Shown piece after piece: positions 10,770-18,241 of a stretch of 64,000 nucleotides of DNA (positions are counted from its first letter, which is position 1; the number at the start of each line of letters is the position of its first letter). Location of the stretch: assembly GCF_003790525.1 (NCBI RefSeq), contig NZ_CP033634.1; one strand, 5' to 3'. The translations under genes and the position numbers were made by a program. The notes beneath the pieces were generated by a model. That model searched no databases, was not told the DNA's origin, and saw only the letters and a list, made by a program, of their open reading frames with translations. The stretch is from Escherichia coli. Lineage in GTDB: Bacteria; Pseudomonadota; Gammaproteobacteria; Enterobacterales; Enterobacteriaceae.

Positions 10770-11392
10770 AGAATAACCTCTTTCACTAACGCTTCGATTT
10801 CTTGCTGGGCTTTATCATTTTGCGTTTCAAAAATTGTCATTGATTCGGCCCAAGCATCTCGATGTGCTTTACGATCACATACCCGGGAGTTTGCCAGATG
10901 CATTTCAGGGTAATCCTTAAGTACTTCAGCTGCCTCATTGGCTTCATTAACAAACATATTTGTGGGCGTCATGTTTAAAACGAGATATCCCCGAACATCC
11001 TCATTAAAATCTTTTGCTGCTGTAAAAACGGAGCATGTATGAGGCACAACATCCAGGTCCATCTGAGATGGGCGCAAAGGAGAAATGAATACATCTGCGG
11101 CCATCAATCCACTACGCATTTCTGCGCTATCACGGCCAGCACAGTCTGCAATAACAAAATCATAGGATTTTTCGTGTTCCTTTAACATGGCTTTGATGTT
11201 ACCTGTCGCGCCTGTAACCGGAATATGAGGGAGATCTTCAGGGCGATTGTTGTACCAGGTTAATACTGATTTCTGGTCATCTGCGTCGACAATAATCACT
11301 CTATTGCCTAGTGACATCAGATACGCAGCTATAGATACCGCCAGTGTACTTTTACCTACCCCACCCTTTTGACTACCTAATACTATTATCAT
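10766..11392 (-). CDS. parA: ParA-family partition ATPase (small type Ib, no N-terminal HTH)
   Basis: Deviant Walker A KGGVGKST at residues 9-16; 208 aa. Confidence 0.9.
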   Translation of the reverse strand: MIIVLGSQKGGVGKSTLAVSIAAYLMSLGNRVIIVDADDQKSVLTWYNNRPEDLPHIPVTGATGNIKAMLKEHEKSYDFVIADCAGRDSAEMRSGLMAADVFISPLRPSQMDLDVVPHTCSVFTAAKDFNEDVRGYLVLNMTPTNMFVNEANEAAEVLKDYPEMHLANSRVCDRKAHRDAWAESMTIFETQNDKAQQEIEALVKEVIL

Positions 11393-11403
11393 TATAGCCT
11401 CAT

Positions 11404-11430
11404 ATTAAGTTGTTAAGTTAACAACTTAAT
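11404..11430. promoter_or_regulatory. Palindromic operator-like site in the parA promoter region
   Basis: ATTAAGTTGTTAA/GTTAACAACTTAAT near-perfect palindrome 12 bp upstream of parA start; a related copy lies at about 11470-11495. Confidence 0.5.
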
Positions 11431-11519
11431 ATTGCCATCTGAACGCGAATCATGCAATTATTTTTGTTATATTAACAACTTAACAAGTTATTAAGTATTT
11501 GATTTATAGATTAATTAAT

Positions 11520-11574
11520 ATAACAAGATAACAAGATAACAAGATAACAAGATAACAAGATAACAAGATAACAA
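11520..11574. repeat. Upstream centromere-like iteron array (parC1-like): six to seven tandem GATAACAA copies
   Basis: taacaagataacaagataacaagataacaagataacaagataacaa. Confidence 0.7.
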
Positions 11575-11595
11575 TATTATGGGTGGATTACATAT

Positions 11596-12774
11596 TCATA
11601 ACTGGGCTACTGGCAAATCTGTCCATCTGGTGGTATACGCAGGAGAAAGCATTTCCCGTTTCATTTGCCATTCAGGGGCGGTTCCTCGCCCCGCAAACCA
11701 CACTTTCCCTTTTCCAGACTGGTTCAGTTCATCGAGTGTTTTCATTAACTTTTCGCTGTTTTTACGGGGCTGGATCTCATCAAATAATCCCGGCTGCGCT
11801 ATACCCGATGGTGTGAAATCAGCCAGCATGACTCCTGCCTTCATATAGCGGTACCCTTCACGCCAGACATGGTTTAAGGCTCTGCATGCGGCGGCAATAA
11901 TGTCCCGGCTGTCCTGTGTGGGCAATGGAAGCTTTTCCACAGCGGCATTGCTGTAACAGGGTTCTTTTACTGCAAAGGGGGATGTCCGTACAAATGTCGT
12001 CACCTGCCGGCAATACTGACGTTCCCCACGTAGTTTCTCTGCGGCCCGCTCTGCATACTGAACAACAGCCTGGTGCATGGCATCTTTGTCTGTGATTCGT
12101 TCACCAAAACTGCGACTACAGACAATCTGCTGTTTTGCCGGTGGTGCTTCTTCCAGGGATATGCAGGACTCGCCGTTGAGTTCGCGTACCGTACGCTCAA
12201 GAATGACGCTGAAGTTTTTCCGGATGAATGCCGTGTTAGCCTGCGCCAGCTGCAGTGCTGTGTTAATACCCAGCGCATTCAGCTTTTCCGTCAGTCTGCG
12301 TCCTACTCCCCAGACCTCACCAACTGGCTGCAGCCCCAGTAGCTTCAAGGTCCGATTACGGTTTTCTGCCGTCAGCGCGACCACTCCGGAAAACTGTGGC
12401 CATTGCTTTGTTGCCCACTGTGCACTTTTAGCCAGCGTTTTTGTAGGCGCAATGCCCACCCCCATGGTGAGTCCTGTCCAGCTCTTTACCTGTTCCCTGA
12501 GCTGATGACCAAAAACCTCCGGAGAGATGCAATGATTTATCCCCCGCAAATCAATGAACATTTCATCAATTGAGTAGGGCTCAACTGCGGGAGAAAGCGA
12601 CTCCAGAACAGCCATAACCCGTTGGCTCATGCTGTGGTACAGCGCATAATTGCTGGAAAATACATGTATTTTCTTCTCCAGGCGCATTTGTCTCACCTGA
12701 AACCAGGGCTGCCCCATTCTGATGCCAAGGGCTTTTGCCTCCGGGCTGCGCGCGATCACACAGCCATCGTTATT
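11596..12774 (-). pseudogene. impB: impB/umuC-like error-prone DNA polymerase (Y-family), 3' portion lacking the first 33 codons
   Basis: Translation from NNDGCVIARSPEAKALGIRMGQPWF... aligns with UmuC/MucB residues about 32 onward; upstream in-frame sequence is unrelated and stops. Confidence 0.85.
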
Positions 12775-13182
12775 CACCGTTACACGTTTTACACCCTAAA
12801 ATGTTATGAAAAACCTTTCTGAACAAAGCCTGTAGCCTGATTTGTGTAATTCTCATCGATATGAAGCAATAAGTTGAGAATTTTTTAATATGGGGCTCAT
12901 TAATTCTCAACAATTAAGTGTGGCATAACATTAATGTCTAAAACTTCTCAGTCTCGCATGCCAGATTGGTTCGTAGTCGTCGAGTGGTGATTGTGACAAT
13001 AAAGATCGAAACTTATGCTTTATCAACATGGCTATCTTAGATAAGTGTGCCAACAAAGTTTGAAACACACTTTTGCCCCATTATGAGTTACAACCCAAAG
13101 TTCAAACAGTGATGTTGAGGTAACTTTGATATACAAAAAGTAATGAACAGCAAAAGATAAAAGCTGAGCCAATTTGTTCACA

Positions 13183-14271
13183 CTATTCAGTTAGCATGAG
13201 CTTTGCTTTAAGAAACGTAAGTTTGATGTCATCAGTTTTGGTGAACTTGAACTTACCGTCAGTAGAAGCGTTAAACCTTTCAAAATAGTATTCAAGTAGC
13301 GGATCGTACCTGCCACCGTGAACCCAAGTGTAGAACTTACCAAGTTCATAACGTAACTCTTTATCAAGTTCAGATCTTATTCTCAGCTCACTATCGTTTG
13401 CTAGTTCAACGATGTTCATTTCTTGAAGGTTCGTCTTAATCTCTTCAATCAGAGGTAGGAGGGATTCTTTATACTTATCAGCCAATGGTACAAGGTCAGC
13501 GTCAGTTACTTCCGCTTCAAAAATCATAATCAGGTCGTCAATCTCCCCGTTATAGTAATCGTTATCTAATCGTTTTTCTGACTCAGTACGAAGAACATAG
13601 AGTTGTTCTAAAGGATCTAATTTAGTCTCAATTTTTTCTTTTGAAAGTTTGTGTTGATACTCAACAAACAGCGTTTCAATCCTATCAGCAATAACATCAA
13701 GATACTCATATCGAATTCTGAGAAATTCCAACAGCTCATTGATATTGAGGTTTAACGTTAGGTCTTCTTTACCCACATCTCGACTGTACAAATGAACACT
13801 CAAATCGCCAGTGTTGAAATGACTTTGAAATGGCCAACTTGCGAAACGCTTTGAGTTTTCTTGATTCAGATTTACGGGGTGAGCACCGAAACACGCCCTG
13901 ATAGTTTTAAAATAATTATTATCATCTTCATTAGCGAAGAGGCGATCTTTGAAACATTTCTTTTCACCATAAAACGGATCTTTCTTATCAGTTATAAACA
14001 CTCGATGGAGTTGTTTTATTGACTCGAAAATAAGGTCTATTGAAGAGATCAGAGAGTAGACCTGCATACATCTACTATCTATGTTCTTGTCAAACTCAGG
14101 CGCATTTTCTAAGTGGCGAACAGAGACAGAGATCCAATCCATAGCAGAGCAAACGAGGTTAAAAAGATTCTTACCACCTTTATCTTTGTATATTTGATAC
14201 ACAAAGCTAGAGTTTGAGTTAACTAAGTCTCGAAAATCACTGATTTTATCGTCACTAACAACGTTTCTCAT
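13183..14271 (-). CDS. Hypothetical protein, 362 aa, AT-rich cargo gene divergent from the PIN-like/AbiH-like pair
   Basis: Long uninterrupted ORF in low-GC DNA; contains an R-x5-H motif (RACFGAH) that could be HEPN-like, but no family confidently recognised. Confidence 0.65.
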   Translation of the reverse strand: MRNVVSDDKISDFRDLVNSNSSFVYQIYKDKGGKNLFNLVCSAMDWISVSVRHLENAPEFDKNIDSRCMQVYSLISSIDLIFESIKQLHRVFITDKKDPFYGEKKCFKDRLFANEDDNNYFKTIRACFGAHPVNLNQENSKRFASWPFQSHFNTGDLSVHLYSRDVGKEDLTLNLNINELLEFLRIRYEYLDVIADRIETLFVEYQHKLSKEKIETKLDPLEQLYVLRTESEKRLDNDYYNGEIDDLIMIFEAEVTDADLVPLADKYKESLLPLIEEIKTNLQEMNIVELANDSELRIRSELDKELRYELGKFYTWVHGGRYDPLLEYYFERFNASTDGKFKFTKTDDIKLTFLKAKLMLTE

Positions 14272-14706
14272 TCTCTAATCGCCTTCTAACCAATTGAAAA
14301 TATTATGAAGAATGGCAAAAATGATAGTGATAGTTCTTCAATTCTTCAACTTCTTTTTTGATTTGAAGTGAAGTGATACGCTGGGTTTTGTCACTTAGTT
14401 AGATTTGAACGATGAGGATCTCTAGCCAGTTGTATTGCTAGGCATTATCCGAAGACAAATAGAAGAACTGAACCTCGAAGTAACTTTTATCCTAGGACGT
14501 GCTGAAGCTGGTCTCCGCAAACTTGTGATCTAGGCCAACACGCCTTTGCCCCCAAAACATTTAAAGCTATCCCTCATCACACCTTGCTAACTCGTTACTT
14601 GCCCGAATTTTTGTAATGAGCCAATATGCTATTAGTTGGTTATCCACTTAATTGTTTTATCAATTTATTTGATGACAATTTACACCATGTGTTCAAGGTA
14701 TTGATT

Positions 14707-15807
14707 ATGGAATTACAGACAAGGCTAGTTTTTATCGATACAAGCGCTTTTGAAAAGAAAAACTATCAATTTGGGCAACACGCTCTTGGTCGTCTTCAAG
14801 AACTAATTGAGGATGAGAAAATCCACTTGCTCATTACTGATGTGACAAGGAAAGAGATCGACTCCCATCTCAAACACAAATCTGAAGAAGCAGCTTCTAT
14901 GATAAAGAAGATGCAAAGAGATGCGATGTTCCTAAGAAACACCCCCGACCTTGATTGTCATGGCATCTTCACCAAGATTAAAGGTGATGATATTTATGCT
15001 GTTATCAGTGAAAAATTTGATGATTTCGTCGAAAACGGCTACGTCGAAACAATTGATGTAAGCACTGTTAACCCTCAAGTTGTATTTGATGCTTACTTCA
15101 ACAACCTTCCTCCTTTTGGCAAAGAATCAAAAAAGCACGAGTTTCCTGATGCATTTGCGCTAGAAGCTATTAAACAGGTGAGCTTGGCTAGAGGATATTC
15201 AGCCTATATCGTTAGTGACGACGGCGATATGAAATCATTCTGTGAGAAAGAAGATAACTTCATTCATCTTGAAAATGTCGATGACCTAATTGACTTGATT
15301 GTTCGAAGCGACAAAGCGTACGAAGAACCAGCCAAATTTGCTGATGAAATATTCGAACAACTCCTAGAACAAATCAAAGCGGATGCCCTGCAAGCTCTCG
15401 AAGATGGCGAGTTCAACTATGAAAACGCAGATCCTTTCGATGAGACTATCAATTCTATAGAAATCAACTCGGTGAATGTTGGGAAGAAAAACTTACAGAA
15501 TGTCGATGCCGAGTGGGCTGAATACGAAGTAGAATTTGAGGTGGTTGTTACGGCAGATTATCGATTCTCAGATTATGACCGTTCACCTTGGGACCCTGAA
15601 GACAAGCAATATGTATTCGTCTTGAGTAATGAGTCAACAGTAAAACACAAAGAAACATACACTGCCCACATAACACTTGCCTATACCGATGGATTAAAAG
15701 CTAACGCATACATTGAAGAGTTTTACTTCCAAGATACATATTTTGAGCTGACTGATAATGACTCCGAAGTCATTAGCTTCAAAGAACTAGATATCAACGG
15801 TGAATGA
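14707..15807 (+). CDS. PIN-like domain protein (DUF4935-like), 366 aa
   Basis: N-terminus MELQTRLVFIDTSAFEKKNYQF... resembles PIN-like DUF4935 openings; stop TGA at 15805-15807 lies one base before the start of the next gene. Confidence 0.65.
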   Translation: MELQTRLVFIDTSAFEKKNYQFGQHALGRLQELIEDEKIHLLITDVTRKEIDSHLKHKSEEAASMIKKMQRDAMFLRNTPDLDCHGIFTKIKGDDIYAVISEKFDDFVENGYVETIDVSTVNPQVVFDAYFNNLPPFGKESKKHEFPDAFALEAIKQVSLARGYSAYIVSDDGDMKSFCEKEDNFIHLENVDDLIDLIVRSDKAYEEPAKFADEIFEQLLEQIKADALQALEDGEFNYENADPFDETINSIEINSVNVGKKNLQNVDAEWAEYEVEFEVVVTADYRFSDYDRSPWDPEDKQYVFVLSNESTVKHKETYTAHITLAYTDGLKANAYIEEFYFQDTYFELTDNDSEVISFKELDINGE

Positions 15808-15808
15808 C

Positions 15809-16277
15809 ATGAAGCTATATGTAATAGGTAATGGCTTTGATGTTCATCATGGCCTTGACACTAGGTATACATCTTTTGGGCTTTATCTCAAAAATAACTA
15901 CTGGGAAACTTATGAACTATTGCTCGACTATTACGGGTTTGCTGACTTAGACCCAGATTTTCCAACAACAATGTCAGACCCTTTATGGTCTGAATTTGAA
16001 ACGAGTATGTCACTGCTTGATAAAGATTCAGTTTTGGAAGCAAACATGGATGCAATGCCAAACTATTCTTCAGATGACTTTCGAGACAGAGACCGATACA
16101 CGCTTGAAATTGAGATGGAGCGAATACTTGGCCTTCTAACCACTGAACTGTATAAAGCATTCAAAGAGTTCATTTTGGCTGTACAGTTTCCTCAGTTTGA
16201 TCACAGCCGATCAGTAAACATTGATAGAGACGCTGTTTACCTCACATTCAACTACACAGATACGCTTTCTCAATACT
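15809..16277 (+). pseudogene. AbiH-like abortive-infection protein, N-terminal 156 codons, truncated by IS2
   Basis: MKLYVIGNGFDVHHGLDTRYTSF matches the AbiH family N-terminal signature; reading frame runs into the IS2 left end at 16278, so the ORF-track tail to 16327 is IS2-encoded. Confidence 0.7.
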
Positions 16278-16368
16278 TAGACTGGCTCCCTGAATCTCCA
16301 GACAACCAGTATCACTTAAATAAGTGATAGTCTTAATACTAGTTTTTAGACTAGTCATTGGAGAACAG

Positions 16369-16734
16369 ATGATTGATGTCTTAGGGCCGGAGAAACGCAG
16401 ACGGCGTACCACACAGGAAAAGATCGCAATTGTTCAGCAGAGCTTTGAACCGGGGATGACGGTCTCCCTCGTTGCCCGGCAACATGGTGTAGCAGCCAGC
16501 CAGTTATTTCTCTGGCGTAAGCAATACCAGGAAGGAAGTCTTACTGCTGTCGCCGCCGGAGAACAGGTTGTTCCTGCCTCTGAACTTGCTGCCGCCATGA
16601 AGCAGATTAAAGAACTCCAGCGCCTGCTCGGCAAGAAAACGATGGAAAATGAACTCCTCAAAGAAGCCGTTGAATATGGACGGGCAAAAAAGTGGATAGC
16701 GCACGCGCCCTTATTGCCCGGGGATGGGGAGTAA
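16369..16734 (+). CDS. insC: IS2 OrfA (InsC)
   Basis: [56 protein letters not shown]... Confidence 0.9.
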
Positions 16735-17597
16735 GCTTAGTCAGCCGTTGTCTCCGGGTGTCGCGTGCGCAGTTGCACGTCATTCTCAGACGAACCGATG
16801 ACTGGATGGATGGCCGCCGCAGTCGTCACACTGATGATACGGATGTGCTTCTCCGTATACACCATGTTATCGGAGAGCTGCCCACGTATGGTTATCGTCG
16901 GGTATGGGCGCTGCTTCGCAGACAGGCAGAACTTGATGGTATGCCTGCGATCAATGCCAAACGTGTTTACCGGATCATGCGCCAGAATGCGCTGTTGCTT
17001 GAGCGAAAACCTGCTGTACCGCCATCGAAACGGGCACATACAGGCAGAGTGGCCGTGAAAGAAAGCAATCAGCGATGGTGCTCTGACGGGTTCGAGTTCT
17101 GCTGTGATAACGGAGAGAGACTGCGTGTCACGTTCGCGCTGGACTGCTGTGATCGTGAGGCACTGCACTGGGCGGTCACTACCGGCGGCTTCAACAGTGA
17201 AACAGTACAGGACGTCATGCCAGGAGCGGTGGAACGCCGCTTCGGCAACGATCTTCCGTCGTCTCCAGTGGAGTGGCTGACGGATAATGGTTCATGCTAC
17301 CGGGCTAATGAAACACGCCAGTTCGCCCGGATGTTGGGACTTGAACCGAAGAACACGGCGGTGCGGAGTCCGGAGAGTAACGGAATAGCAGAGAGCTTCG
17401 TGAAAACGATAAAGCGTGACTACATCAGTATCATGCCCAAACCAGACGGGTTAACGGCAGCAAAGAACCTTGCAGAGGCGTTCGAGCATTATAACGAATG
17501 GCATCCGCATAGTGCGCTGGGTTATCGCTCGCCACGGGAATATCTGCGGCAGCGGGCTTGTAATGGGTTAAGTGATAACAGATGTCTGGAAATATAG
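16692..17597 (+). CDS. insD: IS2 OrfB (InsD), DDE transposase; expressed with OrfA by programmed -1 frameshift
   Basis: ORF overlaps orfA in the -1 frame; contains the IS3-family DDE region ([17 protein letters not shown]). Confidence 0.9.
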
Positions 17598-17705
17598 GGG
17601 CAAATCCAGTGATATCCAATTCATTCAGTCTGTAAACACAATAGTGGACATTCTCACATTGTCAAACGTGTATAGTTAGAGAGTGGAAGTAAAAGTGTAT
17701 GGGTG

Positions 17706-17804
17706 GTTATTGCTGAGTACGATGACCGGTTCGTTGCGAAGGTCCGGGCGGAAAACTTTTTCACATGAGGCGTAGAAACTGTTGATATCAGCCAGTGCAA
17801 ACAT
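17706..17804 (-). pseudogene. impB: impB 5' fragment (first 33 codons) separated from the rest by the 4.9-kb insertion
   Basis: Minus strand reads ATG TTT GCA CTG GCT GAT ATC... = MFALADINSFYASCEKVFRPDLRNEPVIVLSNN; start overlaps impA stop (TGATG). Confidence 0.8.
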
Positions 17805-18241
17805 CAGCGTAACTCCCGCGTCCTGTGTATCACGTGAGTGACAACACCAAAAATACAGATGTTTTCCGGATACAGTGTGCGGAACTCCGGGCTGTCTGAA
17901 ACCGGCTCCAGTGCCGGGCGTGGGCGCAACAGCAGTCGTTTGACGGTGAACTCACCATCGATCTCAGCGATAACGATGTCCCCGTGTTGTGGTTTTTCGG
18001 CCCTGTCCACTACCAGCAGATCACCATTCTGCACGCCAGCCTGGTTCATCGATTCACCGCTGGCGCGCAGAAAGAAGGTGGCTGCAGGTCTGCTGATGCA
18101 ATAGCTGTTCAGATCCAGTTCCTGCTCAGCATAATCAGTGGCAGGCGAAGGAAAACCGGCCAGGCAACGATCGGCAAACAACGGTCGCACGTAACTGTCA
18201 TTGCCTGAAGGGTCAGCCGGACGGTGATAAACGGTACTCAT
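17804..18241 (-). CDS. impA: ImpA (UmuD/MucA-like, LexA-type S24 peptidase fold)
   Basis: 145 aa; FPSPATDYAEQELDLN and ASGESMNQAGVQNGDLLVVD align with UmuD. Confidence 0.9.
   Translation of the reverse strand: MSTVYHRPADPSGNDSYVRPLFADRCLAGFPSPATDYAEQELDLNSYCISRPAATFFLRASGESMNQAGVQNGDLLVVDRAEKPQHGDIVIAEIDGEFTVKRLLLRPRPALEPVSDSPEFRTLYPENICIFGVVTHVIHRTRELR

Follow-up and report, generated by a model that had tools for sequence, protein, structure and literature searches.

Probable IS2-linked loss of the recombination module from an SE-SenBL10-like integrative element in umuC of Escherichia coli plasmid pGZM7d

The sequence of plasmid pGZM7d very probably records an IS2-linked deletion within an integrated SE-SenBL10-like element, with the insertion sequence placed exactly at the junction. 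The analysis concerned a 64,000-nucleotide stretch of E. coli DNA, referred to here as the window, which is identical in sequence to pGZM7d of E. coli GZM7 (NZ_CP129283.1, 90,008 bp; chicken liver, China), a plasmid typed by PLSDB as conjugative, IncFIA/MOBF. Where intact relatives of the element carry a further 6,559 bp, the window carries IS2. A lone insertion sequence at a deletion junction, bordered by unlike flanks, is the classical sign of adjacent deletion or of recombination between insertion sequences.

The element resides within umuC. Alignment to the empty site sets its boundaries at 12775..17705 (minus strand), a span of 4,931 bp including IS2; the element DNA without IS2 comprises 3,600 bp with 37.8% GC. 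Its termini are imperfect inverted repeats of one another, with the intA-distal motif CACCGTTACACGTTTTAC (12775..12792) matched by CACCCATACACTTTTAC, the reverse complement of 17689-17705. On one side lies the umuC 3′ part (11596..12774, minus strand), a RefSeq pseudogene without its first 33 codons, which is collinear with the umuC remnant of the related plasmid pPE13096 (locus L005). On the other side is the 33-codon umuC 5′ fragment (17706..17804, minus strand), supported by annotation and by the L005 alignment, and upstream of the split gene is umuD, annotated as intact (17804..18241, minus strand). A GTTATT hexamer is present at both ends of the element, at the intA-distal side (attR, the 'footprint' position; 12769..12774) and at the intA-proximal side, the native centre of the target site (17706..17711). 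It occurs once in the empty site of pPE13096, where the uninterrupted sequence reads ...CCATCGTTATTGCTGAG.... umuC remains permanently split in pGZM7d. About 1 kb past umuD/dinI, the window also contains an IS110-like ISShdy1 transposase gene (19127-20143). An E. albertii plasmid (L006) has ISShdy1 in the equivalent position, and its umuC contains an IS2-like copy that is also without a duplication (ATGAC/GTGGG).

The insertion sequence is a canonical-length IS2 of 1331 bp at 16278-17608 (plus strand), delimited by annotation, by its inverted repeats and by 99.7% identity to the IS2 of a chromosomal copy of the element (locus L003). Direct reading gives a left end of TAGACTGGCT..., which adjoins orfA and is thus IRL, and a right end of ...GGCAAATCCA, which is IRR with its terminal CA-3′. 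The ends TAGACTGG... and ...CAAATCCA belong to imperfect terminal inverted repeats of about 41/42 bp, IRL at ~16278-16319 and IRR at ~17568-17608, and a repeat search recovered these at 16288-16319 and 17568-17599. The orfA/orfAB transposase gene (16369-17597) is annotated by RefSeq as "IS3-like element IS2 family transposase" with a programmed frameshift and is intact; the A6G slippery run for the −1 orfA/orfB frameshift lies at 16686-16692. Four differences separate this IS2 from that of L003, and two of the four fall inside IRL, C>T at position 10 and A>G at position 32, relative to this other E. coli IS2. These IRL substitutions correspond to window positions 16287 and 16309. Overall, IS2 itself looks intact, and it is the only IS2 in pGZM7d.

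The flanks of this IS2 do not form a 5-bp target-site duplication. The left flank is ATACT (16273-16277), inside abiH, and the right flank is GTGAT (17609-17613), and the two match at 2 of 5 positions. Under the same boundary definition, CCAAT lies on either side of the L003 IS2, and GCGGC on either side of an IS2-like copy in L005. Because these control copies show perfect 5-bp duplications, the missing duplication is real and not a boundary error. Its absence means that the context is not that of a simple insertion, while the identity of IS2 is unaffected. The original prediction, made from the window sequence, had reported an IS2 lacking a duplication between exactly these pentamers, and the interval it gave, 16273-17613, is the insertion sequence plus its two flanks. 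It had also placed the left flank inside an AbiH-like gene and counted 97 bp of element end to the right of IS2. Both observations hold: the left flank falls at codon 156 of the 319-codon abiH, and the remaining end spans 17609-17705.

Homologous elements with 99.8-100% identity occupy umuC in E. coli, on chromosomes as well as on plasmids, and comparison with an intact copy, the check proposed with the original prediction, defined the missing DNA. In the alignment to the plasmid p1 copy of E. coli E18 (locus L004), window positions 11001-16277 align with L004 5010-10277 and window positions 17609-18049 with L004 16837-17277, with neither overlap nor gap at the IS2 ends. The intervening 6,559 bp (L004 10278-16836) are replaced by IS2 in the window. 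Chromosomal copies give the same breakpoints, since the L003 match stops at 16277 and the match to L002, on the fS25a chromosome, restarts at 17609. At the breakpoint within abiH, marked here by a slash, the intact element reads ...TCAATACT/ACGCAA... (longer form, ...CTCAATACT/ACGCAATCC...), and at the intA side it reads ...GCCATGTG/GTGATATCC... (longer form, ...GATTGCCATGTG/GTGATATCC...). The CAT at the latter is the reverse complement of a start codon, and the deletion therefore ends 3 bp upstream of intA; in intact copies, the GTGAT pentamer accordingly starts 3 bp upstream of the intA ATG. What remains on this side is the 97-bp intA-proximal end (17609..17705, minus strand; the attL side), which contains the leader/promoter region of intA as well as the terminal motif ...AAAAGTGTATGGGTG and aligns to L004 16837-16933 and L002 12003-12099. 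It is adjoined by GTTATT and then by the umuC 5′ fragment. The proposal that distal cargo was lost in association with IS2 is supported by this alignment.

The lost segment comprises the 3′ 163 codons of abiH together with srap (146 aa, WP_011264070.1), intB (663 aa), tfp (616 aa, WP_011264068.1) and intA. The last encodes a 509-aa tyrosine recombinase with a Pfam Phage_integrase match (E=5e-7), so the earlier guess that the element's own recombinase had gone was correct. Tfp gave a faint Pfam match, IntB had no Pfam match and nothing in a PDB sequence search, and NCBIfam returned nothing useful for core or cargo proteins. Among 5,426 complete E. coli genomes, 30 carry the segment, in 35 records, none of which is a GZM7 replicon. 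As the segment is absent from GZM7 and the plasmid has a single IS2, the DNA was lost, and its relocation or inversion is ruled out. Recombination between attL and attR has been shown to need all four core genes (Idola et al. 2023, PMC10214605). With all four gone and none elsewhere in GZM7, the remnant has lost the ability to move by itself.

The cargo retained in the window consists of three genes. A hypothetical protein of 362 aa is annotated at 13183..14271 (minus strand) and has zero matches in Pfam, NCBIfam and PADLOC; its gene is oriented divergently to the other two. The second gene (14707..15807, plus strand) is annotated to encode a 366-aa PIN-domain protein (Pfam PIN_12, E=4.7e-36). 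Its stop abuts the abiH start codon, with 1 bp separating both reading frames, an arrangement suggestive of an operon of two genes. Of the pair, only AbiH is recognised by PADLOC, and the PIN–AbiH pairing may therefore be an undescribed defence arrangement. The third gene is abiH, a phage-defence gene of the abortive infection type; its 5′ part (15809..16277, plus strand; PADLOC and translation) retains codons 1-156 of 319, and the open frame continues into IS2 to 16327, adding 16 IS2-encoded residues. With the PADLOC AbiH model, the truncated window product scores E=2.2e-12 and the intact 319-aa homologue E=1.1e-29; the window product covers residues 1-156 and not the full-length profile. Truncated to 156 of 319 residues and extended by a 16-residue tail, AbiH is presumably non-functional, and abiH in pGZM7d is a pseudogene.

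How might IS2 have come to replace this segment? A 10,159-bp SE-SenBL10-like element had integrated at umuC codon 33 of pGZM7d, with the cargo hyp362–PIN–abiH and the core operon intA–tfp–intB–srap. IS2 would then have entered this element, with its target either in abiH (ATACT duplicated) or 3 bp before the intA start codon (GTGAT duplicated). In the resulting sequence, the 6,559 bp between both points are missing and a single IS2 occupies the junction, so that its flanks are drawn from two different places and are not a duplication. IS2 transposes by a copy-out/paste-in pathway via a figure-of-eight and a minicircle, and the abutted minicircle ends attack the target and normally leave direct repeats, the two catalytic centres being 5 bp apart (PMC3299598). 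On the favoured route, a reactive IRR–IRL junction, from a tandem or circle-derived IS2, would attack a nearby site on the same plasmid. Such an attack in cis would delete the intervening DNA, and one original flank and one new flank would be kept. IS2 is not known for forming adjacent deletions often, which speaks against this route.

A variant of this explanation, in no contradiction with it, invokes two same-orientation IS2 insertions, one in abiH and one upstream of intA, followed by RecA-dependent recombination between these 1.3-kb copies and loss of a 6.5-kb circle. We regard this as a serious possibility, somewhat short of an even chance. It yields exactly the observed flanks, and the element is hit by IS2 elsewhere, as in the normal L003 insertion with its CCAAT duplication. 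In other strains, IS1, IS3-family and IS5 insertions are frequent in the segment. The variant nevertheless requires two independent same-orientation insertions within 6.5 kb, and no one- or two-copy intermediate was present in any collection searched, although a two-copy state would not be expected to last, and its absence from the collections would fit this. Neither the left nor the right IS2 junction occurs in other E. coli (5,426 complete genomes), in PLSDB or in JGI metagenomes. Near-misses in PLSDB (H62-H66) are unrelated IS2-like insertions in umuC itself, on plasmids without the element. All possible parents predict the same sequence. We lean to the cis event because the alternative needs two same-orientation hits within 6.5 kb; the one-step intramolecular adjacent deletion is thus slightly more likely, although both routes predict an identical sequence.

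Two further readings would uncouple IS2 from the deletion or place the junction in the assembly process. An IS-independent deletion might have come first, with IS2 entering its junction later and the duplication decaying. IS-free internal deletions of the element do occur, for example one of 3,833 bp on the fS25a chromosome. However, the deletion endpoints fall at the exact bases where IS2 begins and ends, and the pentamers differ at 3 of 5 positions in surroundings that are >99.8% identical to intact copies. The IS2-free joint of the abiH 5′ half to the 97-bp end, which the original prediction had named as the arrangement that would count against it, is present in 0 of 5,426 complete E. coli genomes. 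This order of events is extremely improbable and effectively refuted. Alternatively, two IS2 copies surrounding an intact segment, or situated on different replicons, could have been collapsed or mis-joined. Most E. coli genomes contain several IS2 copies (a median of 3-4 places each), repeats are weak spots of assemblies, and the pGZM7d structure is read from one assembly. The record, however, is a closed circular plasmid in a complete-genome assembly, and a collapse would usually leave the 6.5-kb segment somewhere, yet no GZM7 replicon has it. An artefact of this kind is accordingly very unlikely, and the IS2-linked deletion is the reading that we retain.

Damage to the recombination module is recurrent. 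In two plasmids of E. coli O68:H12 strain 97.3, IS5 replaces 4,541 bp (L008 7306-8500), so that tfp is lost entirely, intB for the most part and intA to a large extent. The fS25a deletion likewise lies in the module, and an AH21C062 plasmid has lost everything beyond abiH +109 bp. Larger module losses are found on other plasmids, and IS1 and IS3-family insertions are found in further strains. Roughly one in three E. coli copies of the element is damaged. That module loss is selected, as opposed to neutral decay, seems improbable to us. If it were true, keeping the SE core operon active would carry a cost, of which continual copy-out nicking is one example, and hosts or plasmids would fix immobilised remnants.

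From its sequence features, the window element is the truncated remnant of an already published strand-biased circularizing integrative element (SE). The reconstructed intact length, 4,931 − 1,331 + 6,559 = 10,159 bp at 38.2% GC, compares with 10,159 bp and 38.19% GC for SE-SenBL10 of Salmonella enterica BL10 (Idola et al. 2023, Mob DNA 14:7, PMC10214605). In SE-SenBL10 and the intact E. coli copies alike, tfp starts 1,629 bp and srap 5,469 bp from the intA-proximal end, and WP_011264068.1 (tfp) and WP_011264070.1 (srap) are in the SE ortholog list (PMC10214605, Additional file 3); the likeness is one of length, GC, gene offsets and listed orthologs. Of the SE hallmarks, the core genes intA–tfp–intB–srap at one end are missing from the window because they were located in the deleted 6,559 bp, and intact relatives do have them. 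The imperfect terminal inverted repeats expected of SEs (13-19 bp) are present, as is target specificity, with all inspected copies at the same umuC position, chromosomal or plasmid.

The 6-bp fingerprint/footprint typical of SEs is also seen. Under the published rule, the hexamer at the intA-proximal end is the target's own, and the distal hexamer is brought from the donor site (PMC10214605). Empty umuC sites read ATTATT on chromosomes and GTTATT on plasmids. The L002 chromosomal copy has ATTATT proximally and GTTATT distally, and the E18 plasmid copy has GTTATT proximally and ATTATT distally. On the footprint expectation, the distal ATTATT of the E18 plasmid copy indicates a chromosomal donor; E18 also has a chromosomal copy of the element, and the pattern implies that the element moved from chromosome to plasmid inside E18. 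In the window copy both hexamers are GTTATT, and its donor was therefore not an E. coli chromosomal site. Chromosomal and plasmid umuC are both occupied within the same strain in SY3626, E18, SCU-106 and O68:H12 97.3, and S. enterica BL10 is likewise listed with both situations (PMC10214605, table). This double carriage fits copy-out mobility and plasmid-borne spread and is not proof of them.

The finding is of an ordinary, already known kind, a textbook IS-associated deletion, here in a published element family. It bears on annotation: the 4.9-kb umuC insert should be described as an immobilised, IS2-truncated SE-SenBL10-like element and not as an active island, and abiH as a pseudogene and not as a working defence locus. 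It also offers a clean natural example of insertion sequences removing mobility genes from recently described integrative elements, and it documents umuC as a target of the element in E. coli chromosomes and plasmids.

Among known systems, a related class to be distinguished from SEs is GInt (2017 work, as described in PMC10214605), which likewise has a four-gene module with three tyrosine-recombinase-like proteins and inserts site-specifically into a gene. GInts have ginC/ginD orthologs and a dead recombinase-fold protein in third position, and neither was found here. In intact relatives of the window element, the order is recombinase, fold protein without a catalytic motif, large recombinase and small protein, which is the SE order (motifs read by eye): by eye, the second, 616-aa protein lacks H-x-x-R...Y, and the third, 663-aa protein has AHDFRRT...H...Y. 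The element's protein accessions are not among the GInt accessions listed and are present in the SE list (PMC10214605). Gene order and the published ortholog lists thus argue against GInt and point to an SE. Compared to SE-SenBL10, the window copy is without intA, tfp, intB and srap, with IS2 in their place, and keeps the termini and the damaged cargo. Its IS2 resembles other IS2 copies in length (1331 bp), ends, and orfA/orfAB with the A6G frameshift, and differs from normal IS2 insertions in having no 5-bp duplication and in its two IRL substitutions. The IS5 deletion of strain 97.3 involves a different insertion sequence and different breakpoints, and abiH and srap are retained there.
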